Origin: Minisyncoccota bacterium
Lineage (GTDB): Bacteria > Patescibacteriota > Minisyncoccia > 2-02-FULL-40-12 > GWA2-44-9
Length of the DNA stretch: 64,000 nt
Assembly (NCBI GenBank): GCA_018062285.1
Contig: JAGOSO010000002.1
Coordinates: forward strand, 3,164 to 67,163
Direction of reading: 5' to 3'
Shown here: piece by piece, positions 10,500 through 57,436 of the stretch
Position numbering within the stretch: the stretch's first letter is position 1
How the letters are laid out: every line of letters begins with the position of its first letter
Notes under the pieces: generated by a model
Seen by the model: only the letters and a program-made list of their open reading frames with translations
What the model was told of the DNA's origin: nothing
Database searches by the model: none
Position numbers and translations under genes: made by a program

Positions 10500-10533
10500 G
10501 GCTGGTGATCGTGCCTTAGCACGATCACCAGCC
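10500..10533 (-). terminator. Rho-independent terminator (perfect 15-bp stem) of paralog 1; identical copy at 10997-11030 for paralog 2
   Basis: ggctggtgatcgtgc-cttag-cacgatcaccagcc followed on the minus strand by a T-run. Confidence 0.7.
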
Positions 10534-10970: not shown

Positions 10971-11046
10971 TTGTGGATTATTTTTAAGTATTAAAAAAGG
11001 CTGGTGATCGTGCCTTAGCACGATCACCAGCCGTGACGCCGAGCTG

Positions 11047-16357: not shown

Positions 16358-17500
16358 TTATAGTCCATTTGAAAAGGCTTTGTCGAGTATGGATTTCTTT
16401 AATTCATCAATACTCTCAAGCTTTTGTTTGTAGAGGGACTCTAATTCCTGAGTCTTTTCAGAAAGCTGATCGAGTTTTTTAACAATTATTTTTTGTTGGA
16501 CTAGTGGAGAAATTGGAATTTCAATACTTTCAATTTGAGTCTTATTTATAGAATTAAATACCGCACCGGAATTTCCAATCAACTGATCTTCGAACATTTT
16601 AAAAAAATAAAAAAGAAAATCCCTATCAATTTCATCACCAACCCTAATAGCAGCTAAACCACGCCCAATACAAATTTTTTCAGTAGCAAAGTTTGTTGGT
16701 CCCACAGGTGCCCTGACTGACATTAAAATGTCTCCTTTTTCAGCTTCCTTTGTAACTTGAGTAGTCCAAACTGTTGGTTTTTTTAAAAAAATATCTCCAA
16801 AATCTTTTTTACCTTGATAGAAAGGTAACCCTTGACCTAATTTATTATAAAATTTACCTTCAGGTGATTGTCCTGCGATTACTTTACAAGTTTGACCTAT
16901 TTTTTTAACTTCCCAACTCTTACCTAGATTACAAAAAACATTATTTAAATAGGACTCAAAAAGCTCTTTTGAATTTTGCAAATTATTTTCCGTATTTTCT
17001 TTTGCTATTTCTAGATTTTTAAAAGTCTCATCGAGAATTTTTACAATTCTTTTTTGTTCTTGTAGAGATTCTGGAAAAGAAATCTGTATTTGCTTAAGGT
17101 TGTCATTATAAAGTCGAGAAATTGTAGCACCTTTAGTAGAATTCCAATCACAAACCTCGTAAAAGTAGTATAGATAGTCGTTTAATACTTGTTTTTCATC
17201 ATTATCAATCCATACAATATTTGAATCTTGAAAATATGCTGGCTTACCATCATACCTGACCCGTCTTCCAATTGTTCCAGATGCAGAAATAAGGATATCC
17301 CCTTTTTTGGGGAACGAAAATTTATTATGAAACTCGTTATATATTTCTTCAGAAATAAAGGCATCTGGTTCCTTACCAAAAGTTCCAATTTTATAAAATG
17401 GAATATCTCCAATTTTTTTCGTCTGGTCTTTAAATATCCTTTTACACATTGATATCTTACCAATATCTCCGAGTTTTTTTGTTTGCCAGTTAGTTTTCAT
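16358..17500 (-). CDS. hsdS: Type I restriction-modification specificity subunit HsdS (two target-recognition domains)
   Basis: Duplicated TRD architecture with conserved central and C-terminal coiled-coil spacer (LESLYKQKLESIDELKKSIL). Confidence 0.8.
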   Translation of the reverse strand: MKTNWQTKKLGDIGKISMCKRIFKDQTKKIGDIPFYKIGTFGKEPDAFISEEIYNEFHNKFSFPKKGDILISASGTIGRRVRYDGKPAYFQDSNIVWIDNDEKQVLNDYLYYFYEVCDWNSTKGATISRLYNDNLKQIQISFPESLQEQKRIVKILDETFKNLEIAKENTENNLQNSKELFESYLNNVFCNLGKSWEVKKIGQTCKVIAGQSPEGKFYNKLGQGLPFYQGKKDFGDIFLKKPTVWTTQVTKEAEKGDILMSVRAPVGPTNFATEKICIGRGLAAIRVGDEIDRDFLFYFFKMFEDQLIGNSGAVFNSINKTQIESIEIPISPLVQQKIIVKKLDQLSEKTQELESLYKQKLESIDELKKSILDKAFSNGL

Positions 17501-17502
17501 AA

Positions 17503-18924
17503 TTACAGAAGTTCTAACATGTACTCAATTCCTTTCTTTAGTTCTGATTCATTAATTTTAGGTTTAGTTGAATTGTAATGATTGATACCATTTCTGATTT
17601 CAGTTATAAATGTTATCTCATCAGGATGACCTTTCCAGGCTCTGTCTTTTTTAATTTTTTTACTCTGTAAATTTGTAAACAAATAATTCTGATCAAATAG
17701 TTTCACAGAAGTTCTATTACTATCACCTGCATCTTCATCTATATATCTTTCATGTAATATTCCATATAGTTGATTAAAATAATCACTTGATGGTATTCCA
17801 AAAACTTCATAGTTAACTGAAGCATAGGTTGATATATTTTTATCAAACTTCTCTATACTTGTTTTATTTGTCTTATCGCTCTTAATCACTTTATAATTTC
17901 TAGATAAATCATTTTTATCTATCATATAGTTTGAGTGGGTAGCAAAAAGACAAATATTATTTTCACCTTGAGATATCTTAACTAGCTCAGACAAGAAATA
18001 TTCTTGGGCCTGCGGATGCAGATGTGTTTCTGGTTCATCCAATAATATCAATGAATCAGAAAGCTCTTTAGTCTCTCTTTGAGATGAAACATTCAACAAA
18101 AAAGATACGAACTGTTTAAATCCATCGCTCCTTTGAACTGTTGTTCTAGGTCTTCCATTTGGATCATTAACATGAAAATTAATTATGTCTCCTGATATAT
18201 CAAAAGTTATGGTAATTGGATGGTTTGGCCAGACTTGTTTTATTAACTCTGTCACCTTAACACCCAGATCAGTCCGTAGAACTTGTCTCTCTGTAGAGTC
18301 CGTAGATATTTCCTGAATTTTCGATTGAATTTTATCTTTTGTATCTAATCCTAGTAATGAAAAACAATTCTTTAAGGGGATAGAAACATTGTCAGGATCA
18401 GCAGAAAAAGCACTCAGACTTATTTCCTTATTTATCAAATATTTATCTTCGGATTTCCAGAAAATAGTGTAATGAGTTTTTTTATAAATATGATCCTTTA
18501 ACAAACTTTCAATATTATCTTTTTGATCAGATTTTATATAAGCGCAAGCAAGAGATATGTTTTTTGTAAGAGATGGGTACTCAAAATTTACATACAGGGT
18601 CACTGATTTTAATTCTTCGTTTGAAATCCCTGATTCTGGAAAGCTTTCTAGAATTATTTTTATAGATTCAGAGATTTCTTCATCTGATTGTTCGTAAACA
18701 AAAACAACTGTAATCGGATTAGGTTTATTATGAAAATCTCCTATTTCAGGTTTTATATTTGTATGATCATCTAACAACGCCAACGCCTTTAAAAAACTAC
18801 TCTTGCCAGCCTCATTAATACCAATCAATCCGTATGTAAAACTACCATCATCCTGTGGTTGTATTTCAAACGGCGCATCTTCAATGCTTCTATAATTTTT
18901 AATTCTAACTGATTTTAATTTCAT
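17503..18924 (-). CDS. ABC-type ATPase fused to a C-terminal HEPN-like domain (PrrC/RloC-like anticodon-nuclease architecture) embedded in the type I RM operon
   Basis: Walker A GLIGINEAGKSSFLKAL, Walker B/D-loop LILLDEPETHLHPQAQ, H-loop LFATHS; C-terminal EIRNGINHY fits the HEPN R-x4-H motif; position between hsdM and hsdS mirrors the E. coli prrC locus. Confidence 0.55.
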   Translation of the reverse strand: MKLKSVRIKNYRSIEDAPFEIQPQDDGSFTYGLIGINEAGKSSFLKALALLDDHTNIKPEIGDFHNKPNPITVVFVYEQSDEEISESIKIILESFPESGISNEELKSVTLYVNFEYPSLTKNISLACAYIKSDQKDNIESLLKDHIYKKTHYTIFWKSEDKYLINKEISLSAFSADPDNVSIPLKNCFSLLGLDTKDKIQSKIQEISTDSTERQVLRTDLGVKVTELIKQVWPNHPITITFDISGDIINFHVNDPNGRPRTTVQRSDGFKQFVSFLLNVSSQRETKELSDSLILLDEPETHLHPQAQEYFLSELVKISQGENNICLFATHSNYMIDKNDLSRNYKVIKSDKTNKTSIEKFDKNISTYASVNYEVFGIPSSDYFNQLYGILHERYIDEDAGDSNRTSVKLFDQNYLFTNLQSKKIKKDRAWKGHPDEITFITEIRNGINHYNSTKPKINESELKKGIEYMLELL

Positions 18925-18928
18925 AGTT

Positions 18929-20446
18929 TTAAATTAATTCACTTAATTCGCTCATGATTTTTATTACTTCTTTATCAAGTGAAGCAATTTCTTTAATAAT
19001 TTCTTTTGGAGACCTCACTGCGACCTTATCTAGCTTATTGGGATTTTTCACTGAAAGATCGTGTGTCTTCTGATCCACTTCAGATACATTTATAGTCCAA
19101 GAATTTTTTGAATCTACTCTTGTCTTGTAAAGTTCCACAAACTCAGACAAATCTTGCTCGCTGAGAGGATTAGTTTTACCAAGATTTCTATCAAGATTAA
19201 GGTGGTAATACCATATTTTCTTAGTTGGACTACCTTTTTTGAAAAATAGGATTACAGTTTTAACACCTGCTTGAAATACACCTCCCGGCAAATCAAGGAC
19301 TGTATGCAAGTCGCAACTATTTAAAAGTTCTTTTCGTAAATTGGCAGCCTTGTCTTCCGATAAAAAGGTGTTTTTTATAACAATGCCTGCGCGACCACCA
19401 GCTCTAAGCTTTTTAATAAAGTGTTGTAGGAACAGATAGGCTGTCTCTCCGCTTTTTATCGGAAAGTTTTGCTGTATTTCTTTTCGCTCACCACCACCAA
19501 ATGGTGGATTAGCTAATATCACATCAAATCTATCCTTCTCTTGTATGTCTGTAATGTTTTCTGACAGCGTGTTGGTGTGAATAATATTTGGCGCATCAAT
19601 ACCATGAAGAATCATGTTCATGACACCAATGATGTATGGAAGAGTTATTTTTTCTTTACCATAAAAAGTTTTTTCTTGTAGAACCTGCCAATCCTTTGAA
19701 GAAAGTTTCTCTCTTTTCTCCGTCATGTGATCATAAGCCTCTATAAGAAAGCCAGCTGATCCGCAGGCGCCATCGTATACAGTTTCCCCAATTTTAGGAT
19801 CTACTAATTCAACGATCGCACGAATAAGAGGGCGTGGAGTGTAATATTGCCCACCATCACGTCCGGCATTACCCATTTTTGCTATCTTACTCTCATAGAG
19901 GTGAGAAAGTTCATGCTTTTCTTCATTCGATTGAAAATGTAAGACATTTACAATATTAAGAATTTCTCTAAGGGCATAGCCACTTTTAATTTTATTCTTA
20001 AGCTCACTAAATATTTCACCGATTTTATACTCAATGGTGTTTGGATTCTCTGCACTAAATTTCCTGAGGTATGGAAAAAGTTTTTGATCAACAAAAGAAT
20101 TTAAATCTGCGCCAGTGAGTGCTTTGTTATAATCGATCTTCTCTTCTTTGTTCATGGGGCATGCCCAATTGCTCCATCTATAATCTGGTTCAAGTATGAA
20201 ATCATATTTTTTGCCAGCAAGTCTGGCTGCTTTTCCTTTCTCAATTTCTAAATCATCCAGATATTTTAAAAATATAATCCAGGAAGTTTGCTCTATATAA
20301 TCCATCGCGCCGCCAGCGTTATCGTTCTTAAGTATATTGTCTATATTTTTGAATGCCTGTTCGAACATAATACCCAAATCATGCTCTTTTTTAAGGTTTT
20401 TATCAATCCTTCGACTTTGCTCAGGACAAGTGGCCCAACGGCTCAA
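18929..20446 (-). CDS. hsdM: Type I RM N6-adenine DNA methyltransferase HsdM
   Basis: HsdM N-terminal domain (WIIFLKYLDD), SAM motif I DGACGSAGFL and catalytic NPPFGG; the annotated start is a TTG inside a palindrome, and an internal ATG (MFEQAF) is an alternative. Confidence 0.85.
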   Translation of the reverse strand: MSRWATCPEQSRRIDKNLKKEHDLGIMFEQAFKNIDNILKNDNAGGAMDYIEQTSWIIFLKYLDDLEIEKGKAARLAGKKYDFILEPDYRWSNWACPMNKEEKIDYNKALTGADLNSFVDQKLFPYLRKFSAENPNTIEYKIGEIFSELKNKIKSGYALREILNIVNVLHFQSNEEKHELSHLYESKIAKMGNAGRDGGQYYTPRPLIRAIVELVDPKIGETVYDGACGSAGFLIEAYDHMTEKREKLSSKDWQVLQEKTFYGKEKITLPYIIGVMNMILHGIDAPNIIHTNTLSENITDIQEKDRFDVILANPPFGGGERKEIQQNFPIKSGETAYLFLQHFIKKLRAGGRAGIVIKNTFLSEDKAANLRKELLNSCDLHTVLDLPGGVFQAGVKTVILFFKKGSPTKKIWYYHLNLDRNLGKTNPLSEQDLSEFVELYKTRVDSKNSWTINVSEVDQKTHDLSVKNPNKLDKVAVRSPKEIIKEIASLDKEVIKIMSELSELI

Positions 20447-20531
20447 CCGGTTGAGCCGTTGCCCAAACCAAGCTTAGCCTTTCTCTTTTTATCGCTTGAA
20501 AGACACTCTGTAATACCCAAAAGGAGCGAGG

Positions 20532-20625
20532 GCCAAGTCAAAACTGACTGTCGCAGGCCGGGCAGGCCGGAGTTCTAAGCGGAAAAGTCAGCAGACTTTT
20601 AACGCGGGTCAGTTTTGGCTTGGGC
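20532..20625. repeat. Structured repeat element copy R1 (outer stem + conserved core gcggaaaagtcagcagacttttaacgcgggtc)
   Basis: Outer stem gccaagtcaaaactgac/gtcagttttggcttgg encloses the conserved core; the second copy is at 25965-26040. Confidence 0.6.
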
Positions 20626-20634
20626 TGAGCGATG

Positions 20635-21015
20635 TCACTCATGTTTGAGCCGTTTGCGAAGCTCTCGGTAATCCGGAAACTGTTGAGCGACTAAATCCCA
20701 GAAGTTCTGGGAGTGGTTGAATTCTTTGAGGTGGCAGAGTTCGTGGACGATAATGTAATCGGCAAGACGTGGTTCCATTAGAGCCAAGCGATAACTAAAA
20801 TTAAGATTGCCACGACGGGAACAACTCCCCCAACGAGTCTTCTGATTACGGATAGCAACTTTATTGTATTTAAAATTATATAATTGATTAAAATATTCTA
20901 ATCTCTCATGGACTAGTTTGCGGGCCGATTCTTTGTGAGCCAAATATTCCTTGCGTGGTGGCCTCGGCCTTGAAACTCTAACCCTCCGCCACACTATTTT
21001 AAATCTGGTAAACAT
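20635..21015 (-). CDS. DUF45/YgjP-like (WLM/SprT-like) predicted zinc metallohydrolase
   Basis: HEXXH zinc motif IIVHELCHLKEFNH near the C-terminus; this family is frequently linked to type I RM loci. Confidence 0.65.
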   Translation of the reverse strand: MFTRFKIVWRRVRVSRPRPPRKEYLAHKESARKLVHERLEYFNQLYNFKYNKVAIRNQKTRWGSCSRRGNLNFSYRLALMEPRLADYIIVHELCHLKEFNHSQNFWDLVAQQFPDYRELRKRLKHE

Positions 21016-21085
21016 CAGGAAATTTTAACATAAAAAAAAGATCCCCTCCGGCACGCATTGCGCACCGAAGGGGTAAGGGAAGGAA

Positions 21086-21571
21086 CTAGCTGGCCGTTTC
21101 GGCTGACTCGGGCTGGTACTCGACCATGAGTCGCCGGCCGGGTCTGTCGTAGATGACATGGTTAAGTTCTACGACCTTCGGATTCTGCCCCAGATCGAAG
21201 CGGATGGAAATATCCGCCTCATCCCGCTTCACTTTGGCTTCCGTCATCATCTGACGGACGAGGGCCAACATCGGGCTGGAGATGCCGTCGTTGCGCCAGC
21301 AGGAATCGTGGTTGGACATGACCTCCCACGAGTCCAGATGATCGAAGCGAGCGTTAACCGCATCAGTGATGTTCCACCCGACCTTCGTGTAGTTCTGGGG
21401 CCGGTGGAACAGAAGATGGGCGATCTTCTGGTGGGAGCGGGCGGAGCTGCCCCGGCGAGAGACGCGAACGTCGAACGCCATGACCAACACCTTCTTCTCG
21501 CCACTCCCCCGCGGGAGCATTGCCTCAACGATTGTCGAGGCAACTTCCTCGAAATCCATGTTCAAAGCCAT
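21086..21571 (-). CDS. Hypothetical protein (GC-rich island gene 1 of 8)
   Basis: 161-aa ORF with AAGGAGG 8 nt upstream of the ATG; the overlapping opposite-strand ORFs are rejected as GC-driven artefacts. Confidence 0.5.
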   Translation of the reverse strand: MALNMDFEEVASTIVEAMLPRGSGEKKVLVMAFDVRVSRRGSSARSHQKIAHLLFHRPQNYTKVGWNITDAVNARFDHLDSWEVMSNHDSCWRNDGISSPMLALVRQMMTEAKVKRDEADISIRFDLGQNPKVVELNHVIYDRPGRRLMVEYQPESAETAS

Positions 21572-21700
21572 CTGCTGTGCCTCCTTAGGCGTTAAAAGAA
21601 CGTATATAAATTATACCATAGTTTATATTAAAAAGCAAGTGCTAGTTTTTGAGTAAAAAAGAGCCCCCTCGGCACGCAATGCGTACCGAAGGGGTAATGA

Positions 21701-22204
21701 TTAGAGATCGTGGATGACGATCGTGGGAGCGGGAGCATTGTCCCACTTCTGCTTGATTCGCTTGAGCTCTTCTTCAACGGCCAACCCGACGCCCTCATCG
21801 ACAGACCAGAGAACATCGTTGTTGATGTCGAACCAGAGATTGAAACGATTCTCGTACGGACTGGGGGTCTTGAGACCGAGCTTGAATTCAAGGGCCTCAC
21901 GGAAGAGAGGAGCTGACTTGAAACGCATGGTCTCGTCCACAGCGACACGCTGGATGAGTTCCTGATAGCCGGTGAAATTGAATCCCCGGCCAGCAATGAC
22001 TTCCACCTTGATCACGGCTTCGCCAAAAATGATTGTCGTCTCAATGCGCGTGATACCTTTGGCAAAGATCCGTTTGAGCGACGACGGTCGAGAGCCCAAT
22101 TCAAACTCGGCGGCTCCCATGTTGTCGTACTCAATCTTTCCCCTTTCCTTGCTGGGGTCAAAGGCGCAACGCTGAATATAACGCGGATAAGCTAACTCGG
22201 GCAT
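21701..22204 (-). CDS. Hypothetical protein, paralog family A copy 1
   Basis: MPELAYPRYIQRCAF...GRGFNF...ETMRFKSAPLF...EFKLGLKTP...NLWFDINNDVLW; AAGGAGA SD; about 50% identical to 22614-23075. Confidence 0.55.
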   Translation of the reverse strand: MPELAYPRYIQRCAFDPSKERGKIEYDNMGAAEFELGSRPSSLKRIFAKGITRIETTIIFGEAVIKVEVIAGRGFNFTGYQELIQRVAVDETMRFKSAPLFREALEFKLGLKTPSPYENRFNLWFDINNDVLWSVDEGVGLAVEEELKRIKQKWDNAPAPTIVIHDL

Positions 22205-22333
22205 GTTGCCTGTCTCCTTGTGGGAAAGAACTCCCGTATTATATACCAAAATTTACAGCAAAAGGCAATCAAAAATTTTGTACAAAAAATGCCCGCTCGC
22301 AAGGACCAGTGGGGTCGATGCGAGACGGGCGTG

Positions 22334-22576
22334 TTAGTGATTGCCAAAAAATAACATGGCAAGCACGACGAGGACGATGATCCCCACGGCAAGTGGGTAC
22401 CGGTTGGCGGTGCGATTAGCCGCACGGCCACTGGCCCGACCAACGTGTCGGACACCGTTCCCTGCCACTCGGCCGACTCCACGAGCGAATCGGTTGGCAG
22501 AATCGGGGCCTCCGAAAATCATCCGAAAGCCATAAATCACGATGGCGAGAACGAGCAGTGAACCAAGCAAGGGCAT
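22334..22576 (-). CDS. Small two-TM membrane protein
   Basis: MPLLGSLLVLAIVIYGF...YPLAVGIIVLVVLAMLFF; GGAGGT SD. Confidence 0.5.
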   Translation of the reverse strand: MPLLGSLLVLAIVIYGFRMIFGGPDSANRFARGVGRVAGNGVRHVGRASGRAANRTANRYPLAVGIIVLVVLAMLFFGNH

Positions 22577-22613
22577 AAGTACCTCCGGCGGGTTAGATTG
22601 TTAAGTTTCTGAA

Positions 22614-23075
22614 TCAGCTGATACCAGCTGTGGGGCGGGCCTGCCATCTCTCTCTGATGAGATTGAGCGAGGCAGACAGTCCAACGGCTTCGATGGTCCA
22701 GAGAACATCATTCTCGATGTCGAACCAAACGTTGACTCGAGGCTGATAAGCGGTGGGCCTCTTCAGCCCGAGCTTGAATTCAATCTCGTCTTTGAATCGA
22801 GGTGCGGCGGCGAACCGCATGGTGCTGTCGGTGGCAATTCGCTCGATGTGCCCCTGATAGCTGACGAGATCGAATCCGCGCGAACCAACCAGCTCGATAG
22901 GCACAACACTGCCGGTGTTGAAACGGATCCCCGTCTGGAATTGAACAATTCCTTTTTCGAAAATCCGCCTCAACGAATTCTGGGTGCCCCACTGGAAATC
23001 GGAGATGCCCATATCGTCGAACCTGAGTTTCCCATCTTTCAAAGTGCAACGCTGAATCAAACGCGGTCTCTTCAT
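22614..23075 (-). CDS. Hypothetical protein, paralog family A copy 2
   Basis: MKRPRLIQRCTL...GSRGFDL...STMRFAAAPRF...EFKLGLKRP...NVWFDIENDVLW aligns with copy 1. Confidence 0.55.
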   Translation of the reverse strand: MKRPRLIQRCTLKDGKLRFDDMGISDFQWGTQNSLRRIFEKGIVQFQTGIRFNTGSVVPIELVGSRGFDLVSYQGHIERIATDSTMRFAAAPRFKDEIEFKLGLKRPTAYQPRVNVWFDIENDVLWTIEAVGLSASLNLIRERWQARPTAGIS

Positions 23076-23106
23076 TACCAGTATCCTTATCTGGTCCTAG
23101 AAGATT

Positions 23107-23607
23107 CTAGAACGATGTTTTTTGTCGAACCTCTTCGAGCATTCGGTCAAATTCTTCTTCCGTCATCTGTTTCAGGTGTGCTGACAAGTCTTCTGTCCCC
23201 TCTGGCCATTCAAAGATGTTTCCCTCTCGACCAGCCAGTGAATCAAATTGGTTCTTCGTGAGGAAATTGCCGACGGAGAAAGCGTCCAGATTGAACACTG
23301 CTCCACGGGATATTAACCCAACTTCGATACCAAGAGACTCATTGATATACATCAGGCGAGGGTGAACATAAACCTTGTGCCGTGGAAGTTGGAGCCAGAT
23401 TTTCTTGAGGAGGTCGAGATCGGTCACGATGACCGGACAACCAATTTCCCAAAGAACATCATCCACCCCCAAGACTACTGGCCACACCTCATCTTCTGGC
23501 AAATCCGCAATGAGCATCATGAAGGAATACCCGATACGGTATCCAGACTGATCCCCCTTTAGTACTGCCCTGAGATTTCTTGGCTTGTCTACCCTTTCTG
23601 AATACAT
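23107..23607 (-). CDS. Hypothetical protein, paralog family B copy 1
   Basis: VDKPRNLRAVLKGDQSGYRIGYSFMMLIADLPED...; AAGGAG SD; shares its N-terminal pattern with 23725-24183. Confidence 0.5.
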   Translation of the reverse strand: MYSERVDKPRNLRAVLKGDQSGYRIGYSFMMLIADLPEDEVWPVVLGVDDVLWEIGCPVIVTDLDLLKKIWLQLPRHKVYVHPRLMYINESLGIEVGLISRGAVFNLDAFSVGNFLTKNQFDSLAGREGNIFEWPEGTEDLSAHLKQMTEEEFDRMLEEVRQKTSF

Positions 23608-23724
23608 CGAATAACTCCTTATCTATATTATAGCACGTTTTAAATAAAAATCAATAGAAATAAAAAAGCCGCCCACCAGAGGTGTCCGATGGGACAGCTC
23701 TTGAATGGACGGCGTATGGGTTGC

Positions 23725-24183
23725 TTAGGCCTGATACTTCTTGCTGGCCTCGGCAATCATCTTGAGAAAATTTATTTCAGACATCGGAGTGAGAAGAACC
23801 AGCGTCGGATGCCACATGAAAGGGCGACCCTGTTGGGAGATAAGGTGCGTGAAAAGTTCGGGTGTGAGGATTTCTTCAACTTGGCAGAATTCTGGCGAGT
23901 TGGAGACTGGGGCTTGGAGTCCCAGAAGTAGATTGACATAAGCCAATCTCTCAACAACTTTGCTTGGAGCTGGGGGCATCAGTTGCCACACTCGCTGGAT
24001 CACCTCAAATTCTGTGGCCCACACGACTGATCTTGTTCGCATGTAGACCGAGCGAAAATCTTGGTCCCCGCAATGATCGAACATCAAAGAGAAAACTTTC
24101 ATCAATCGGTAACCGCTTTGGACACCATCGATGATTTCTTGCAGATTCTTGGGTCGAGAAGACCCTCTGTCAACGACTTCCAT
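23725..24183 (-). CDS. Hypothetical protein, paralog family B copy 2
   Basis: VDRGSSRPKNLQEIIDGVQSGYRLMKVFSLMFDHCGD... same RxxPxNLxxxxxGxQSGYR...F..M..D core as copy 1. Confidence 0.5.
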   Translation of the reverse strand: MEVVDRGSSRPKNLQEIIDGVQSGYRLMKVFSLMFDHCGDQDFRSVYMRTRSVVWATEFEVIQRVWQLMPPAPSKVVERLAYVNLLLGLQAPVSNSPEFCQVEEILTPELFTHLISQQGRPFMWHPTLVLLTPMSEINFLKMIAEASKKYQA

Positions 24184-24198
24184 TATTCCTGCCCCCCT

Positions 24199-24729
24199 CT
24201 AGTTGATATGGGTCAACAAGCCGATGGCCTGAGACCAACCATAGATCTGTTCGGTCTTACCGAAGAAATGCTCGAACTCGGCCACCTCATGAATTTTGGG
24301 GTTAAACAAGAAGAGACGCATCCCCATACCAATGAGTGACCCCAACGCCTCGAGATGATCATCAATGTAGTGAGTCAACTCAAGGTCCCGACACAGAGCA
24401 GCCTTCTCGGCCCGCTCTCGACAGTAGTGAACACGGGCCGACGAATTCGGAATCCCTGTTTTCGCATACAGCTGGTGGTAATCCAGCCAGTGGTGGGTTT
24501 TGGTTCGGATGTCACCGTCGCGCTCTCGTGAGATCAGATGAACACGTCCGGCGAACGGCCCAGAGTTCAGATGACCCAAGACACCGAATACGCCGAAGGT
24601 CGGGAGGGCCTGAAGATAGTTCGGTCCTTTGAACAAGGCAGAGCCTTCGCCCCTAGCGTTGTCGATGACGACCCCACTGATATCCACGCCCAACACAGCC
24701 CTTCTTCCTGACAAATCTGCACCTGACAT
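24199..24729 (-). CDS. Putative HAD-superfamily 5'(3')-deoxyribonucleotidase-like protein
   Basis: N-terminal RRAVLGVDISGVVIDN resembles HAD motif I of the NT5C family (DMDGVLxDF); later K...W...H...IDDH region; AAGGAG SD. Confidence 0.35.
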   Translation of the reverse strand: MSGADLSGRRAVLGVDISGVVIDNARGEGSALFKGPNYLQALPTFGVFGVLGHLNSGPFAGRVHLISRERDGDIRTKTHHWLDYHQLYAKTGIPNSSARVHYCRERAEKAALCRDLELTHYIDDHLEALGSLIGMGMRLFLFNPKIHEVAEFEHFFGKTEQIYGWSQAIGLLTHIN

Positions 24730-24785
24730 ATGACTTCTCCTTGACCAATATTAAAACACAATTAAGACAATATTGCAAATAATAC

Positions 24786-25934
24786 CTAGGCTTCCACCAA
24801 TTCTTTAATTTCTTTTTCGAATCTATGAGCGCTAAAAAGTGAAGCTTGATTTTTTATTATTTCGGAATTGTAATTACTGTAGTTATTATTTAAACGGCGA
24901 ACCGCATCCGCCAAGGCTTCTGGTATTGGATCGTCAAAGAATTCACCAGTTTGGCCTTCTCGTAATGTTTCTGTCGCTCCCCCTTTGCGTAATGCCACAA
25001 CTGGTTTACCAAAAGACATGGCTTCAATTGGAGTCAGCCCAAAATCCTCTTCCTGAGGCATTATGAAAGCCCTACAGTGCGCGTAAGCTTCGGCCACAGC
25101 AGAATCATCCTGCTCTCCCAAAAAAGTTACCCTAGGGCCCGCCATGTGCTCAAGTCGCTTTCTATCTGGTCCATCACCAATAACAACCAATGGAAAATTT
25201 AACTTATTAAAAGCCTCAATTGCGATATCGATATTTTTATACGCATGAAGACGCGAAACGATCAAATAGTAATCCTGACTAGAGAATCGCGAACTTAGAC
25301 CACGAGGAGACGCGTCAAAATCCTGCTGGATTTTGCGCTCATTCTCAGCCCGTCGGCTTCCGATAGCTCCTCCTTGCTCTAAGCTCGCGATTCCTGGATA
25401 TATTACGACTGAATCTTTGCGATAATATTTTTTGATACGAGATTGGACAACTTGGGAGATGGCGACAAATTGGTCGACGCGATCTGCAGAAGCGCGATCC
25501 CAGAGACGCAAGAAATGTTGATACAAAATACCAAAGATTGATAACTCTTTCCCTTTGGCATATTCCGCGTGCCAGTCCCAAAGCATTCGAGTGGGGCTAT
25601 AGCAATAACAAATATGTTTGGTTGATGGTTTTAAAATTAAGCCCTTAGAAAAAACCGCCGAAGAAGATAATACTTTTTCAAATTCTGACAAATCAAAAGA
25701 CTCAACTGCGGTTGGCATTAACCACCCAAAGAGAACATATGTTTTTGAGATAAAAGGAATCTTCTGGAGGAAGCTCGCACGGATGTCGGCATCCGGCAAC
25801 CACCTATCCACAAACTTCTTATCATAAAAAAGAGTATAGATTGGAGCGTCTGGAAAAATTCTATGCAACTCAATCAAAACTCTCTCCGCTCCGCTTATAT
25901 TTTTTAACCAATCATGAACAATCGCTAATCGCAT
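24786..25934 (-). CDS. Family 1 (GT4-like) glycosyltransferase
   Basis: C-terminal EDFGLTPIEAMSFGKPVVALRKGGATETL (GT1 E-x7-E region); 382 aa. Confidence 0.75.
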   Translation of the reverse strand: MRLAIVHDWLKNISGAERVLIELHRIFPDAPIYTLFYDKKFVDRWLPDADIRASFLQKIPFISKTYVLFGWLMPTAVESFDLSEFEKVLSSSAVFSKGLILKPSTKHICYCYSPTRMLWDWHAEYAKGKELSIFGILYQHFLRLWDRASADRVDQFVAISQVVQSRIKKYYRKDSVVIYPGIASLEQGGAIGSRRAENERKIQQDFDASPRGLSSRFSSQDYYLIVSRLHAYKNIDIAIEAFNKLNFPLVVIGDGPDRKRLEHMAGPRVTFLGEQDDSAVAEAYAHCRAFIMPQEEDFGLTPIEAMSFGKPVVALRKGGATETLREGQTGEFFDDPIPEALADAVRRLNNNYSNYNSEIIKNQASLFSAHRFEKEIKELVEA

Positions 25935-25964
25935 ATTTATAGATAATTAGTTTTTAATTCTCGA

Positions 25965-26040
25965 GACCAAGCCGACCGTCGCAGGCGGGTAGCCGAGGGC
26001 AGAGCGGAAAAGTCAGCAGACTTTTAACGCGGGTCGGCGC
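25965..26040. repeat. Structured repeat element copy R2
   Basis: Outer stem gccgacc/ggtcggc (different sequence, pairing maintained) encloses gtcgcagg...gcggaaaagtcagcagacttttaacgcgggtc, which is identical to R1's core. Confidence 0.6.
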
Positions 26041-26099
26041 GTATTGAGGATTAAAAACTAGTCTCCTATTTTTATCATATTTATTGAGAGGGTTCATTA

Positions 26100-55812: not shown

Positions 55813-57333
55813 TTAACGAGCGTACTCTAAGGCTCTCGTCTCCCGAATAACATTAACTCTAATTTCGCCAGGGTATTTCATTTCTTCTTCAATTTTCTTG
55901 GCAACGTCTTTGGCAAGCTTGATGGCACCTAAGTCATCGATACGAGTTGGGGTGACAAAAATACGTAATTCGCGACCGGCTTGGATAGCATAGGATTTTT
56001 CGACACCTTCAAAACTCTTAGCAATTCTTTCAAGTTCTTCTAAGCGCTTCAAATAGACCTCAACGGTATCTTTACGAGCACCTGGGCGAGCGCCAGAGAT
56101 GGCGTCAGCGGCCTGAACGATACGAGCTTCTAAGATTGAATATGGATATTCATCGTGGTGAGCTTCCATGGCCTGAATAACACGTGGATCAACATTAAAT
56201 TTCTGGAGAACCTTACGACCAATTTCAACGTGAGTACCCTGAACTTCATGGTCTAGAGCCTTACCGATGTCATGGAACAAAGCACCTCTCTTGGCCAACA
56301 TGACGTCAGCACCAAGTTCAGAAGCCAACATGCCAGCAATATGAGTCATCTCAACAGAGTGACGCAAAATATTTTGACCAAAACTAGTACGGAAAGCCAA
56401 GCGACCTAATAATAGAGTTAGTTTAGGATCAAAAGGACCAACGCCAGTTTCAAATAAAGCAGCCTCCCCTTCTTCTTTCATCTTGGCGTTCATCTCATCG
56501 TTAGCTTTTTGAACTTCTTCTTCAATCTTAGCAGGATGAATACGGCCATCAGCGATTAAGCGTTCAATGGCGATACGGGCAATCTGGCGACGAACTGGGT
56601 CAAAACCAGAAATAATCAAAGCTTCTGGGGTGTCATCGATAATGACATCAACGCCAGTTAATCTTTCGATAGCTTTAATGTTGCGTCCTTCTTTACCAAT
56701 AATCTTGCCTTTGACTTCATCGGAAGGAAGATTGACCACAGTCGTCATTGTGTCAGAGATATGGGAACCGGCATAACGCTGAACGGCTAGGGTTACAATT
56801 TCTTTGGCTTTCTTTTCTAATTCCTCTTTATTATCCGTATCAAGTTTGTGCATCTTACGATAAAGTTCATCCTTAGAATCTTCTTCAATCTTAGTAATTA
56901 ATTCGGTTTTTGCTGCCTCACGACCCAAACCGGCGACTCTTTCAAGTTCAATGATTTGTTTGGCATGAGTAGCTTCAACTTGAGACTTCAAAGCAACCAC
57001 TTCTGTGGCCTTTAACTTAAGTTGTTCTTTTTCCGATTCAATTTCTTTAGACTTTTGTTCCAACTCAGTCTCCTTGCGAGTCAATAAGCTTTCAATACGC
57101 GAAAGCTGAGCCGACCGCTCTTTTTCTTCTTTCTTGGATTCTTCTAGGGTCTTTAAGGCAGTATTCTTGGCTTCAAGGACTAAGTCTTGAGCCTGAGACT
57201 TGGCGTCAGTAAGTATTTGCTGAGCCTTAGATTCGGCATTAGAAGCCTTTTGGGAGGCCAAAAACTGTCGTGCAAAGTATCCTATCAGTAAGCCTAAAGA
57301 TGCCGCGATAAGTGCGGGCAAAATGATTGTCAT
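55813..57333 (-). CDS. rny: Ribonuclease Y
   Basis: N-terminal TM, coiled-coil, KH domain (GKIIGKEGRNIKAIE) and HD domain (HDIGK...HH). Confidence 0.9.
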   Translation of the reverse strand: MTIILPALIAASLGLLIGYFARQFLASQKASNAESKAQQILTDAKSQAQDLVLEAKNTALKTLEESKKEEKERSAQLSRIESLLTRKETELEQKSKEIESEKEQLKLKATEVVALKSQVEATHAKQIIELERVAGLGREAAKTELITKIEEDSKDELYRKMHKLDTDNKEELEKKAKEIVTLAVQRYAGSHISDTMTTVVNLPSDEVKGKIIGKEGRNIKAIERLTGVDVIIDDTPEALIISGFDPVRRQIARIAIERLIADGRIHPAKIEEEVQKANDEMNAKMKEEGEAALFETGVGPFDPKLTLLLGRLAFRTSFGQNILRHSVEMTHIAGMLASELGADVMLAKRGALFHDIGKALDHEVQGTHVEIGRKVLQKFNVDPRVIQAMEAHHDEYPYSILEARIVQAADAISGARPGARKDTVEVYLKRLEELERIAKSFEGVEKSYAIQAGRELRIFVTPTRIDDLGAIKLAKDVAKKIEEEMKYPGEIRVNVIRETRALEYAR

Positions 57334-57436
57334 TTGTTATTGGTAAAGTTAGAAAAACCATATTGGTACTTCTAGCTAATATTAAAGGAAATTTAACCCT
57401 ACTATACAGAAAAGGGCATCTTTAGGCAAACTCGAT

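Follow-up and report, generated by a model that had tools for sequence, protein, structure and literature searches.

A probable family of mobile palindromic repeats with a conserved three-way-junction tip in Parcubacteria-type bacteria

Known dispersed palindromes and the present family

The Rickettsia palindromic elements (RPEs) are dispersed palindromes of ~100-150 bp in a small, host-dependent genome, where they also occur in frame within unrelated protein-coding genes and are translated (PMC10969869). The family described here, members of which lie in a 64,000-nt stretch of DNA from a Minisyncoccota bacterium (the window), is likewise palindromic and is found both between genes and in frame within a coding gene, namely in the linker of a GT1-family glycosyltransferase (GT1) in four genomes. 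It is found in Parcubacteria-type CPR bacteria (Paceibacterota / Yanofskybacteria), which are likewise host-dependent and have small genomes but belong to a different phylum, and the likeness is one of description, not of sequence comparison. Unlike in RPEs, the conserved part is a covarying three-way junction at the tip of the hairpin, with copy-specific stems; most copies are intergenic and lie at stop codons, GT1 being the only host gene seen with intragenic copies; and open reading frames are not enriched in the element sequence (0.33, against 0.29 in shuffles). The best reading is of a mobile palindromic family comparable to the RPE and SPRITE elements.

Also known are dispersed repeats in which the unit, a hairpin with a U-tract, resembles an intrinsic terminator (PMC10969869). 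A copy inserted right after the lepA stop codon in L165 has this form, consisting of a hairpin, then TCGTCGC, then TTTTGTTTTTTG. In line with a terminator-like appearance, the ordinary terminators of the host genome are long perfect hairpins. However, only about one third of the copies show a clear A- or T-run (of 65 copies, 22 have an A-run on the 5' side and 13 a T-run on the 3' side), the hairpin, with its conserved branched tip, greatly exceeds the length that a terminator requires, and termination is a prediction.

Correia elements of Neisseria and ERIC elements are intergenic palindromes that form long mRNA hairpins, which in Correia elements are cut by RNase III and in ERIC elements change 3'-end fate (PMC10969869). 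Similarly, stems of 25-35 bp lie beside genes in the present family, including on both sides of a putative RNase III gene (L119, L155). Conserved terminal inverted repeats are a feature of both Correia and ERIC elements, and a TA duplication and IHF sites are further features of Correia elements. In the present family, in contrast, it is the terminal arms that vary; they do not form conserved terminal inverted repeats, a point that also separates the family from classical MITEs.

REP/REPIN sequences with RAYT transposases, and the hairpin ends of IS200/IS605, are short palindromes outside genes, and they are recognised in folded, single-stranded form. The family shares with REP/REPIN its multiple copies, their homogenisation within a genome and its orientation rules, but REP stems are conserved and REP tips are not, and no GTAG-type motif was found in the family. 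In integron cassettes, the attC bottom strand is the better-folding strand, is antisense, and belongs to a site just after the stop codon. The present element is similar in that structure is conserved over stem sequence, it follows directly on the stop of a co-oriented gene, and its better-folding strand is the antisense one. However, attC sites conserve the base of the stem (R and L boxes) and vary at the tip, the reverse of what is found here, and no R''/R' boxes, integron integrase or cassette arrays were seen at the family loci.

Structure of the element

The first-pass annotation had described an ~80-nt element in two copies, R1 and R2, with an identical 32-nt core. The window has exactly two occurrences of this core, GCGGAAAAGTCAGCAGACTTTTAACGCGGGTC (Table 1), with no further match at ≤3 mismatches and 0.00 expected from 100 shuffles. 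The motif GTCGCAGG is found upstream in both, and the outer stems and 7-bp hairpin (AAAAGTC-AGCA-GACTTTT) of the earlier description are present. Both copies lie where they had been placed but are longer than was thought, R1 ending in a GAGCGA collar on either side and R2 having imperfect arms that extend it to 25939-26069. R1 and R2 fold into the same three-way junction (P1-P3) atop a copy-specific stem, at -50.9 kcal/mol (z = -5.35) and -40.0 kcal/mol (z = -3.77), respectively. P2 is an extra small hairpin beyond the earlier description (GGCC-GGGCA-GGCC in R1, GGC-GGGTA-GCC in R2). A third, diverged copy lies inside the GT1 ORF, in frame and in the sense orientation, in the linker joining the two Rossmann-like domains of the protein. 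Its translation contains GIASLEQGGAIGSRRAENERKIQQDFDASPRGLSSRF and its P3 carries the compensatory changes AAAATCC/GGATTTT. R1 and R2 are therefore not the sole copies in the window, contrary to the initial count of two.

Table 1. Copies of the element and adjacent genes in the window
Feature	Coordinates	Strand	Basis or detail
R1, whole element	20524-20632	+	Sequence, fold, inverted repeat I20; order: collar, arm GGGCCAAG, model match, arm CTTGGGCT, collar
R1, GAGCGA collars	20524-20529; 20627-20632		
R1, model match	20538-20618	+	81 nt; cmsearch 88.7 and 69.6 bits
R1, three-way-junction core	20546-20610	+	Inner P1 GACT/GGTC
R1, P2	20556-20568		
R1, P3	20579-20605		Loop AGCA 20590-20593
R1, stretch identical to R2	20579-20610	+	GCGGAAAAGTCAGCAGACTTTTAACGCGGGTC
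R2, whole hairpin	25939-26069	+	Fold, inverted repeat I2
R2, arms	25939-25967; 26041-26069		Imperfect, 29 nt, AT-rich
R2, model match	25966-26043	+	78 nt; cmsearch 98.6 and 81.5 bits
R2, three-way-junction core	25974-26035	+	Inner P1 GACC/GGTC
R2, P2	25984-25994		
R2, P3	26004-26030		
R2, stretch identical to R1	26004-26035	+	GCGGAAAAGTCAGCAGACTTTTAACGCGGGTC
Third copy, whole	25284-25393	-	Inverted repeat I8
Third copy, arms	25284-25302; 25375-25393		19 nt
Third copy, model match	25299-25377	-	cmsearch 38.9 bits, then 71.3 bits, E = 1.4e-17
GT1-family glycosyltransferase gene	24786-25934	-	Pfam at residues 103-182 and 219-362; homologue alignment
YgjP-like metallopeptidase ORF, N-terminally truncated	20635-21015	-	PF01863 profile positions 108-206 of 207 only; stop codon 20635-20637
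hsdM	18929-20446	-	Pfam; P0241 100% identical over 479 aa; start in public annotation 20368 (479 aa)

Two more copies, each on a different stem, were found in a Yanofskybacteria MAG. A pattern scan of metagenomes gave 73 loci, and cmsearch gave 64 matches with a first model and 75 with a second, in Parcubacteria-type CPR contigs; most of these loci come from short-read metagenome assemblies, which may be chimeric at repeats. The element has no match in Rfam 15, in keeping with the earlier remark that it could not be matched to riboswitch, ribozyme or tRNA consensus sequences.

Copies are hairpins of 92-142 nt whose tip is a conserved three-way junction of ~62 nt. The tip comprises, in order, P1, the junction N-U-C-G-S-A, P2, the junction GAG..GA, and P3, with the consensus GCG-N-AAAANNN-AGCA-NNNUUUU-N'-A-CGC. 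P2 accepts insertions, of ~45 nt in L099 and L101. The base is a long copy-specific stem, which often carries an AGCGA/GAGCGA collar and an A-tract on one side or a T-tract on the other. Among 56 distinct family members, 89.8% of cells were paired (71.9% in shuffles), the covariation score was 0.417 (0.134 in shuffles, and ≤0.10 when partners were slid), and changes on both sides were present at 21 of 26 pairs. Since covariation backs each of P1, P2 and P3, the element is a selected single-strand structure and not a chance repeat, as had been proposed from R1 and R2.

Placement and turnover of copies

The usual landing place of the unit is directly 3' of stop codons. Copies typically adjoin a stop codon, not a start, and the 3'-side ORF ends a median of 18 nt from the model match. 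This ORF is convergent in 40 of 56 cases (p = 0.002), whereas the 5'-side neighbour shows no orientation bias. R1 is placed in this way, its 3' collar lying 2 nt from the stop codon of the YgjP-like ORF. No gene is consistently nearby: neighbours are diverse, 70 of 106 neighbouring ORFs being singletons. LepA is named among them, and from their sequences we take others to be NusB, RNase III, S16, Def, Fmt, RNase Y, IleS and RecG.

This bears on the suggestion that R1 and R2 are cis-regulatory leaders of hsdM and GT1, which is rejected on the unrelated neighbours and the stop-codon placement. R1 lies 85-160 nt upstream of hsdM, to which its modelled strand is antisense, and the element is missing upstream of three close homologues of hsdM (85-88% identical). 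R2 lies ~32 nt upstream of the GT1 start, in a divergent spacer with GT1 (-) on one side and a 77-aa ORF (+) on the other, and the copy upstream of GT1 has the opposite orientation in a relative.

The unit, including arms, collar and U-tract, comes and goes at given sites. At lepA in L165 it forms a clean insertion of 131 nt with no -10 box of its own, while in L170 and L171 (LepA 88% and 85% identical) the site is empty, holds no palindrome, and has two convergent stop codons 2 nt apart. Upstream of GT1, the window has an antisense copy and L167 a sense one; in L168 and L169 the site is empty. The unit is also able to sit in frame within a gene in either orientation. Intact copies in the GT1 linker, sense in the window, L175 and L176 and antisense in L177, score 71-85 bits and are translated; closer GT1 homologues have no linker insert.

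Cores are homogenised within a genome and arms turn over fast. One metagenome holds ~10 copies with a near-identical core and arms that all differ, and the Ga0196965 contigs hold five near-identical copies. In L119 and L164, where the RNase III proteins are 96.9% identical, the cores are identical and the arms unrelated. Cores at orthologous sites differ between genomes, though they are identical within a genome. A target-site duplication (TA or TAG) was seen at one site only, itself ambiguous, and no linkage of a copy to a transposase, integrase or reverse transcriptase was found.

Alternative readings and a proposed role for the tip

We consider it likely that R1, R2 and the GT1 copy belong to a large interspersed family of mobile palindromic repeats with a terminator-like hairpin. 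It would follow from this membership that R1 and R2 are two ordinary members, by chance 5.4 kb apart.

Alternatively, the copies may be genes for non-coding RNAs, or RNA motifs acting in cis (such as a three-way junction that binds protein or is catalytic), retained because of a cellular function, multi-copy like tRNAs and inherited vertically at conserved intergenic sites, with mobility secondary. Three covarying helices, conserved junction and loop nucleotides and the long P2 insertions are typical of functional RNAs, and some copies are kept at orthologous sites, namely at NusB / RNase III / S16 in L119, L155, L120 and L164 and in a TATAAT-element-efp arrangement in L111 and L125. The modelled strand also folds better in 55 of 59 copies, which are not independent because the conserved core common to all contributes to each fold. 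It has purine-rich loops and more G-U pairs (81 against 49 in the arms, p = 0.06; 48 G-U against 17 A-C in the core). However, the modelled strand is mostly antisense to the adjacent gene, so that the mRNA carries the opposite strand, and the evidence on strand is therefore conflicting: folding and G-U pairs favour the modelled strand and gene orientation the other. At most sites it is antisense to the flanking operon and has no room for its own promoter, and the lepA insertion lacks a -10 box. Since copies placed in either orientation inside a coding sequence are translated, relatives differ in whether a site is filled, cores follow the genome and not the site, and no gene is constant nearby, an RNA gene family seems an unlikely explanation.

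A folded single-stranded DNA site for a tyrosine recombinase or HUH enzyme, of the kind represented by integron attC, CTX attP, IS200/IS605 and REP-like sequences, would account for a conserved structure on a variable stem, tolerated G-T pairs, insertion polymorphism, and placement directly 3' of stops with the better-folding strand antisense. We think it quite improbable, as we do its more detailed form, in which recognition takes place during replication, the tip is a protein-binding module and the orientation bias reflects the replication strand. Such a pure strand effect should bias both sides, but only the 3'-side neighbour is biased. Furthermore, RYYYAAC/GTTRRRY boxes are absent, the gene lists obtained around the loci showed neither an integrase nor a HUH gene, and the neighbours are housekeeping genes, not cassette arrays.

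GT1 is a core gene, since the same MreB and response-regulator neighbourhood is kept in relatives. The proposal that R1 and R2 bracket an island as att-like repeats left by site-specific integration of a 5.4-kb segment is favoured by their direct orientation, their 32 identical bases, and the higher GC (0.47-0.54) of the 21-25 kb region with its ORFs lacking Pfam or PADLOC matches, but it is exceedingly improbable and already contradicted on present evidence: this syntenic gene and a third copy lie inside the segment, the block of high-GC unassigned ORFs ends at the truncated YgjP-like gene near 21016-21043 and not at R1, no Pfam integrase domain is present in the ORFs of ≥120 aa that the repeats enclose, L167 has the element upstream of GT1 yet a different downstream region, and ~75 other copies have no relation to islands.

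Within the preferred reading of mobile palindromic repeats, the hairpin and U-tract, once inserted, would be predicted to act as an intrinsic, often bidirectional terminator for the adjacent gene, and the inserted hairpin may also provide it with a double-stranded RNA processing or stability site. The tip would be kept in both sequence and pairing as a module recognised on the folded single strand by a trans-acting partner, candidates being an RNA-binding factor of the host or the machinery responsible for copying or exchange of the element. The conserved tip is probably what a propagation or binding factor recognises. Since its junction nucleotides are conserved across sub-types and its P2 length is variable, as in a functional RNA, the tip may have a cellular role apart from mobility.

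A family of hairpins with a conserved junction at the tip

R1 and R2 lie where the first-pass annotation had placed them and answer to its description. The 32-mer common to both, GCGGAAAAGTCAGCAGACTTTTAACGCGGGTC, occurs exactly twice in the window, with no further match there at up to 3 mismatches and none in shuffled sequence. Folding bore out that both are structured and gave one and the same three-way junction. Its enclosing stem, P1, has four inner pairs common to the two copies (GACY/GGTC) and an outer portion that differs; the small hairpin P2 reads GGCC-GGGCA-GGCC in R1 and GGC-GGGTA-GCC in R2; and P3 is GCG-G-AAAAGTC-AGCA-GACTTTT-AA-CGC in both. The plus strand folded at -50.9 kcal/mol (z = -5.35) for R1 and at -40.0 kcal/mol (z = -3.77) for R2, and the minus strand of each folded more weakly.

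A search with covariance models, which had been put forward as a check on the element, revealed further copies in the window and in related contigs, so that we are dealing with a family and not a pair. Two extra copies, with near-identical cores and a different long stem in each, came from one Candidatus Yanofskybacteria MAG when one genome per species was scanned with a pattern. The first model, built from these two copies together with R1 and R2, found a third copy in the window, on the minus strand inside GT1, the GT1-family glycosyltransferase gene between R1 and R2. Among 73 metagenome loci retrieved with a degenerate pattern fitting both variants it gave 64 matches, from which a second model was built, and this found 75 in CPR loci totalling 612 kb, several contigs having 2-4 copies each. 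Under the second model the window copies scored 81.5, 71.3 and 69.6 bits and everything else in the window 14 bits or less. The homologues of the flanking proteins are named Yanofskybacteria or Paceibacterota. Viral contigs held no copy by a specific pattern, and the 88 matches that a loose gapped pattern gave in them were all due to chance in GC-rich coding DNA. Exact-protein look-ups with the window's GT1 and P0136 found no record.

Rfam 15, against which the first-pass annotation had proposed to run both copies, returned chance-level matches only for R1 and R2 (13 and 9 bits, at E <= 10). Over the whole window at gathering thresholds it returned four tRNAs and nothing else, and for eight further loci (E <= 1) there was no match on the elements. 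Hammerhead core motifs were absent by eye. No description of the element was found in the literature searched on CPR repeats, MITEs and structured RNAs.

Covariation was measured over 26 pairs in 56 distinct sequences, in an alignment that was itself fitted to the model: 89.8% of cells were paired, against 71.9% in shuffles and 33-48% when the partners were slid, and the covariation score was 0.417, against 0.134 and 0.10 or less, respectively, with two-sided changes in 21 of the 26 pairs. The AAAA/TTTT and AGCA columns are invariant because the retrieval pattern fixed them. All three stems were independently recovered by RNAalifold, together with a covarying pair N:N' that extends P3, and P2 tolerates insertions of ~45 nt in some members. 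The structure of the element is under selection. A kink-turn formed by J1/2, P2 and J2/3 was also considered. It suits the CGGAGG sub-types (CUC-UCG-GA-GGC / GCC-GA-GAG) and not the GTCGCAGG type of the window, and was dropped because the latter has C where the key G should be.

Coordinates of the element copies and of other features in the window and at two loci from other CPR contigs
Feature	Position	Strand	Description
R1	20532-20625	+	copy of the element
Collar of R1	20524-20529 and 20627-20632		5' and 3' parts
R2	25965-26040	+	copy of the element
Third copy	25299-25377	minus	copy of the element, inside GT1
Type I RM operon	16358-20446	minus	AAA_15/AAA_21 ATPase between hsdM and hsdS
Edge of the high-GC ORF block	~21016-21043		at a truncated YgjP-like gene
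ORF run	21086-24729	minus	GC 0.47-0.54; between GT1 and the truncated YgjP-like gene
First paralogue pair of the run	21701-22249 with 22614-23075	minus
Second paralogue pair of the run	23107-23607 with 23725-24183	minus
Terminator-like hairpins	21043-21073 and 21664-21694	minus	near-identical, GC-rich; CCCCTTCGGTRCGCAWTGCGTGCCGRRGGGG then T-run
Long-armed hairpin	57287-57432		18-nt arms (89% complementary) around 110 nt
Repeated short hairpin	10500-10533 and 10999-11032		same perfect 15-bp hairpin (GGCTGGTGATCGTGC, 4-nt loop), two copies 499 nt apart
Hairpin upstream of GT1 in L168	L168:2828-2975		~150 nt, branched tip; also in L169
Half copy in L176	L176:2146-2190		3' half of an older copy (...TCTTTTGACGCGCTTCGCCGTGGG, read as SFDALRRGL)

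Placement at gene ends, arms and strand

The copies are nearly always intergenic. The ORF on the 3' side was convergent in 40 of 56 cases (p = 0.002), its end lying a median of 18 nt from the model match, and the 5'-side neighbour had no orientation bias (24 vs 15). Each hairpin is 92-142 nt long, and the arms beyond the modelled part of 77-78 nt are specific to each copy. A collar (5' AGCGA, 3' GAGCGA) is found 7-9 nt outside the modelled part in 15 of 59 copies, R1 among them. This AGCGA...GAGCGA direct repeat seems to belong to the element, and in the copies that bear it a stop codon comes right after the collar (GAGCGA-YTA).

The neighbouring ORFs are varied (70 of 106 are singletons), and no gene family among these 106 was consistently linked to the element. 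Reading the genes from sequence, we take the order to be NusB-element-RNase III-element-S16 in L119 and L155 (L-numbers are loci from other CPR contigs) and Def-element-Fmt in L091, with RNase Y, IleS and RecG presumably encoded by other neighbours; a LepA neighbour is annotated as elongation factor 4. Between a TATAAT box and a gene which we take to be efp, L111 and L125 have the element in sense orientation.

The first-pass annotation had offered a cis-regulatory or leader RNA of hsdM and GT1 as one reading of R1 and R2. This reading fails because the contexts of the element are dispersed, because its placement follows the stop-codon rule, because its orientation at the GT1 site is reversed in L167, and because three close hsdM homologues are without any copy. 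In a search for an empty R1 site, the close hsdM homologues of relatives turned out to lie in RM operons in contexts other than that of the window, and gave no site to compare. The ATPase of the window's own type I RM operon matches the Old, AriA and GajA models of PADLOC; L172 has the identical hsdM-ATPase-hsdS order, and in L172 and L174 a close hsdM homologue directly follows a gene that is presumably a tRNA.

An intrinsic (Rho-independent) terminator would need a stable hairpin that runs straight into a U-tract where a gene ends. Every copy has the hairpin, and most adjoin a stop codon. A T-run follows the hairpin on its 3' side in 13 of 65 copies; in 22 of 65 an A-run precedes it on the 5' side, which on the opposite strand is a U-tract. 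R1 has UUUU only, R2 has no U-tract beside a gene end, and the copy inserted after lepA has a clear U-tract. A simple terminator scanner cannot call loops as large as those of the element.

The modelled strand, i.e. that of the covariance model, folded better in 55 of 59 copies and the reverse strand in 4, comparisons that are not independent since the conserved core common to all contributes to each. In the arms there were 81 G-U pairs on the modelled strand and 49 on the reverse (symmetric test, p = 0.06), and in the core 48 G-U pairs stood against 17 A-C pairs, which the reverse strand would read as G-U; on these counts the preference for the modelled strand is only about 2:1. An arm count of 91:12 (about 8:1) for G-U:A-C overstated this bias, because the counting method detects the two kinds of pair unequally, and it is withdrawn. 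Relative to the adjoining gene, the modelled strand is in most cases the antisense one. Adaptation of the element for reading in many frames was rejected, there being no enrichment of open frames (0.33 vs 0.29 in shuffles).

Filled and empty sites and the separate histories of cores and arms

The site after lepA holds the element in L165 and is empty in L170 and L171 (LepA identity 88% and 85%, respectively). The flanks of the latter two align cleanly with those of L165, with 131 nt missing; in the empty sites the convergent stop codons are 2 nt apart and there is no palindrome of any kind. Read in the lepA sense, the L165 insert comprises arm, core, arm and then TCGTCGC-TTTTGTTTTTTGTCTGAC, and it follows from this comparison that arms, collar and U-tract come in with the element. 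TA (or TAG) stands on both sides of the 131-nt insertion, which is the sole filled/empty pair available for a check on target duplication. The locus-specific arms and the many long hairpins of the window had made it attractive to suppose that a terminator hairpin was there first and took up the core in its loop; this model was rejected because the empty lepA sites are palindrome-free and the intragenic GT1 copies bring their own arms.

Other repeats and hairpins were seen alongside the element. A second repeat, of which the window has none, lies in frame in housekeeping proteins, in L165 (LepA), L108 (IleS, twice) and L163 (RecG). It consists of heptamers in tandem, (ATTACGA)n then (AATCCGC)n, between which pairing is possible via G-U pairs, and it is translated as ...ITNYELRI...NPQSAIRN.... 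LepA homologues vary in length between 556 and 662 aa, a spread that suggests frequent insertions of this kind. In the window itself, the long-armed hairpin at the 5' end of, and upstream of, a 506-aa minus-strand ORF has a predicted fold of -47.7 kcal/mol (z = -4.7) and may be another structured insert; a perfect short hairpin also occurs twice.

Upstream of GT1 the element is antisense in the window (R2), sense in L167 and absent from L168 and L169. In its place the latter two have a different hairpin, which folded at -68.4 kcal/mol (z = -5.8) in L168 and gave no match to the covariance model, and L167 retains the left arm of this type of hairpin (CGCCTCATTGCC) as a relic. Several families of hairpins with such tips seem to coexist in these genomes.

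GT1 is the only host gene in which intragenic copies of the element were seen. Its inter-domain linker is hypervariable among homologues, and it holds intact copies scoring 71-85 bits, in sense orientation in the window, L175 and L176 and in antisense orientation in L177, all with different core sub-types and arms. They are read through, giving ERKIQQDFDA-type peptides in the sense orientation and RQKSADFCAPSRLPASERS in the antisense. The extra peptide in GT1 amounts to some 36 residues. Closer GT1 homologues have no linker insert. In L176 half of an older copy lies directly downstream of the intact one, and the inserts of other GT1 homologues end in the same ...FDAxRRGL... peptide. Judged from these sequences, the linker may have taken repeated hits, or replacement, at one site.

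Cores and arms also differ in how they are shared between copies. About ten copies from one metagenome have a near-identical 62-nt core and unrelated arms, and the Ga0196965 contigs have five near-identical copies. L119 and L164 encode RNase III proteins with 96.9% identity, and at the same site their cores are identical and their arms unrelated, whereas between L119 and L120 the arms are related and the core sub-types different. Arms and core therefore have separate histories. In two of the Ga0196965 contigs (L124 and L132) the left flank and the element are common and the right flanks unrelated; either recombination has taken place at the repeat or short reads were joined into a chimera across its 130 nt.

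The other reading offered at first, in which R1 and R2 are att-like repeats bounding a 5.4-kb insertion, did not hold up. It fails because GT1, lying between them, keeps its MreB / response-regulator neighbourhood in relatives, because the high-GC ORF block stops at a truncated YgjP-like gene and not at R1, and because a Pfam scan of window ORFs gave no integrase domain; in addition, the third copy falls within the R1-R2 segment. The region that varies among relatives is downstream of GT1, and in the relatives it holds defence-type genes. The ORF run found there in the window contains two paralogue pairs, and its ORFs had no Pfam or PADLOC match. Two terminator-like hairpins in this block differ in style from the AT-rich long hairpins elsewhere in the window.

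Relation to known elements and proposed working

What the evidence shows is a structured repeat that is dispersed, polymorphic for insertion, placed at stop codons, now and then inserted in frame into coding sequence, and homogenised in its core within genomes. By analogy, its behaviour appears closest to that of the Rickettsia palindromic elements, which make in-frame insertions, and of the terminator-like SPRITE repeats (PMC10969869). As with the former, there are many dispersed palindromic copies of ~100-150 bp (3 in the window, 75 in CPR loci) and an in-frame, translated insertion in a protein-coding gene (GT1 only); the Rickettsia elements have a host phylum other than that of the present element, and the likeness is set by behaviour. 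The element may also be likened to the Correia and ERIC elements for their RNA-level side effects (PMC10969869), of a kind that it would be expected to share.

Presence/absence polymorphism at the 3' end of lepA, upstream of GT1 and in the GT1 linker is a MITE-like trait. MITEs have conserved terminal inverted repeats, whereas here the outer arms differ wholly between copies with identical cores; since such repeats are absent the element is not a classical MITE, and no parent insertion sequence was found for it. Nor is it an integron attC site, because its conservation sits at the tip and not at the base: the boxes R''/L'' and L'/R' (RYYYAAC ... GTTRRRY) are absent, the base of the hairpin is copy-specific or AGCGA/GAGCGA, and unlike attC sites, which form cassette arrays next to an integrase, the element has housekeeping neighbours, with no integrase in the gene lists of the loci or the scanned window ORFs.

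Once inserted, a long hairpin with a U-tract would be expected to terminate transcription, and the hairpin would provide double-stranded RNA for processing. The conserved junction is probably a recognition module for a trans-acting partner on the folded single strand. It is conceivable, if on balance unlikely, that the conserved three-way-junction tip works as the active part of a mobile element of a novel kind, one that spreads as a structured single strand (of RNA or of DNA) and amounts to a 'portable terminator'. At each move a new arm pair could then form, for example by snap-back copying of one arm, by core exchange between hairpins or by inversion through the element's own arms, and the move would call for a CPR-specific enzyme or for catalytic help from the junction itself. 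A portable terminator of this kind would jointly explain why near-identical strains have identical cores with arms that are unrelated and yet pair perfectly, why both orientations occur at one site and why the tip covaries deeply.

A large part of bacterial diversity belongs to the CPR/Patescibacteria, whose genomes are of ~1 Mb; to our knowledge almost no repeats or non-coding RNA families of their own have been described. Streamlined as they are, these genomes put up with, and perhaps make use of, a structured repeat that supplies modules of hairpin and U-tract at gene ends, that is written into a conserved glycosyltransferase as an extra peptide in either orientation, and that evolves as an unusual mosaic of a frozen tip and fast-changing yet always complementary arms. 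For annotators, the covariance model serves as a marker of the element, and its matches point to places where assemblies of CPR MAGs are likely to break. The conserved junction offers a well-defined bait in the search for its protein partner; this might mobilise the element or bind RNA, and in either case it would be new to the biology of the CPR.
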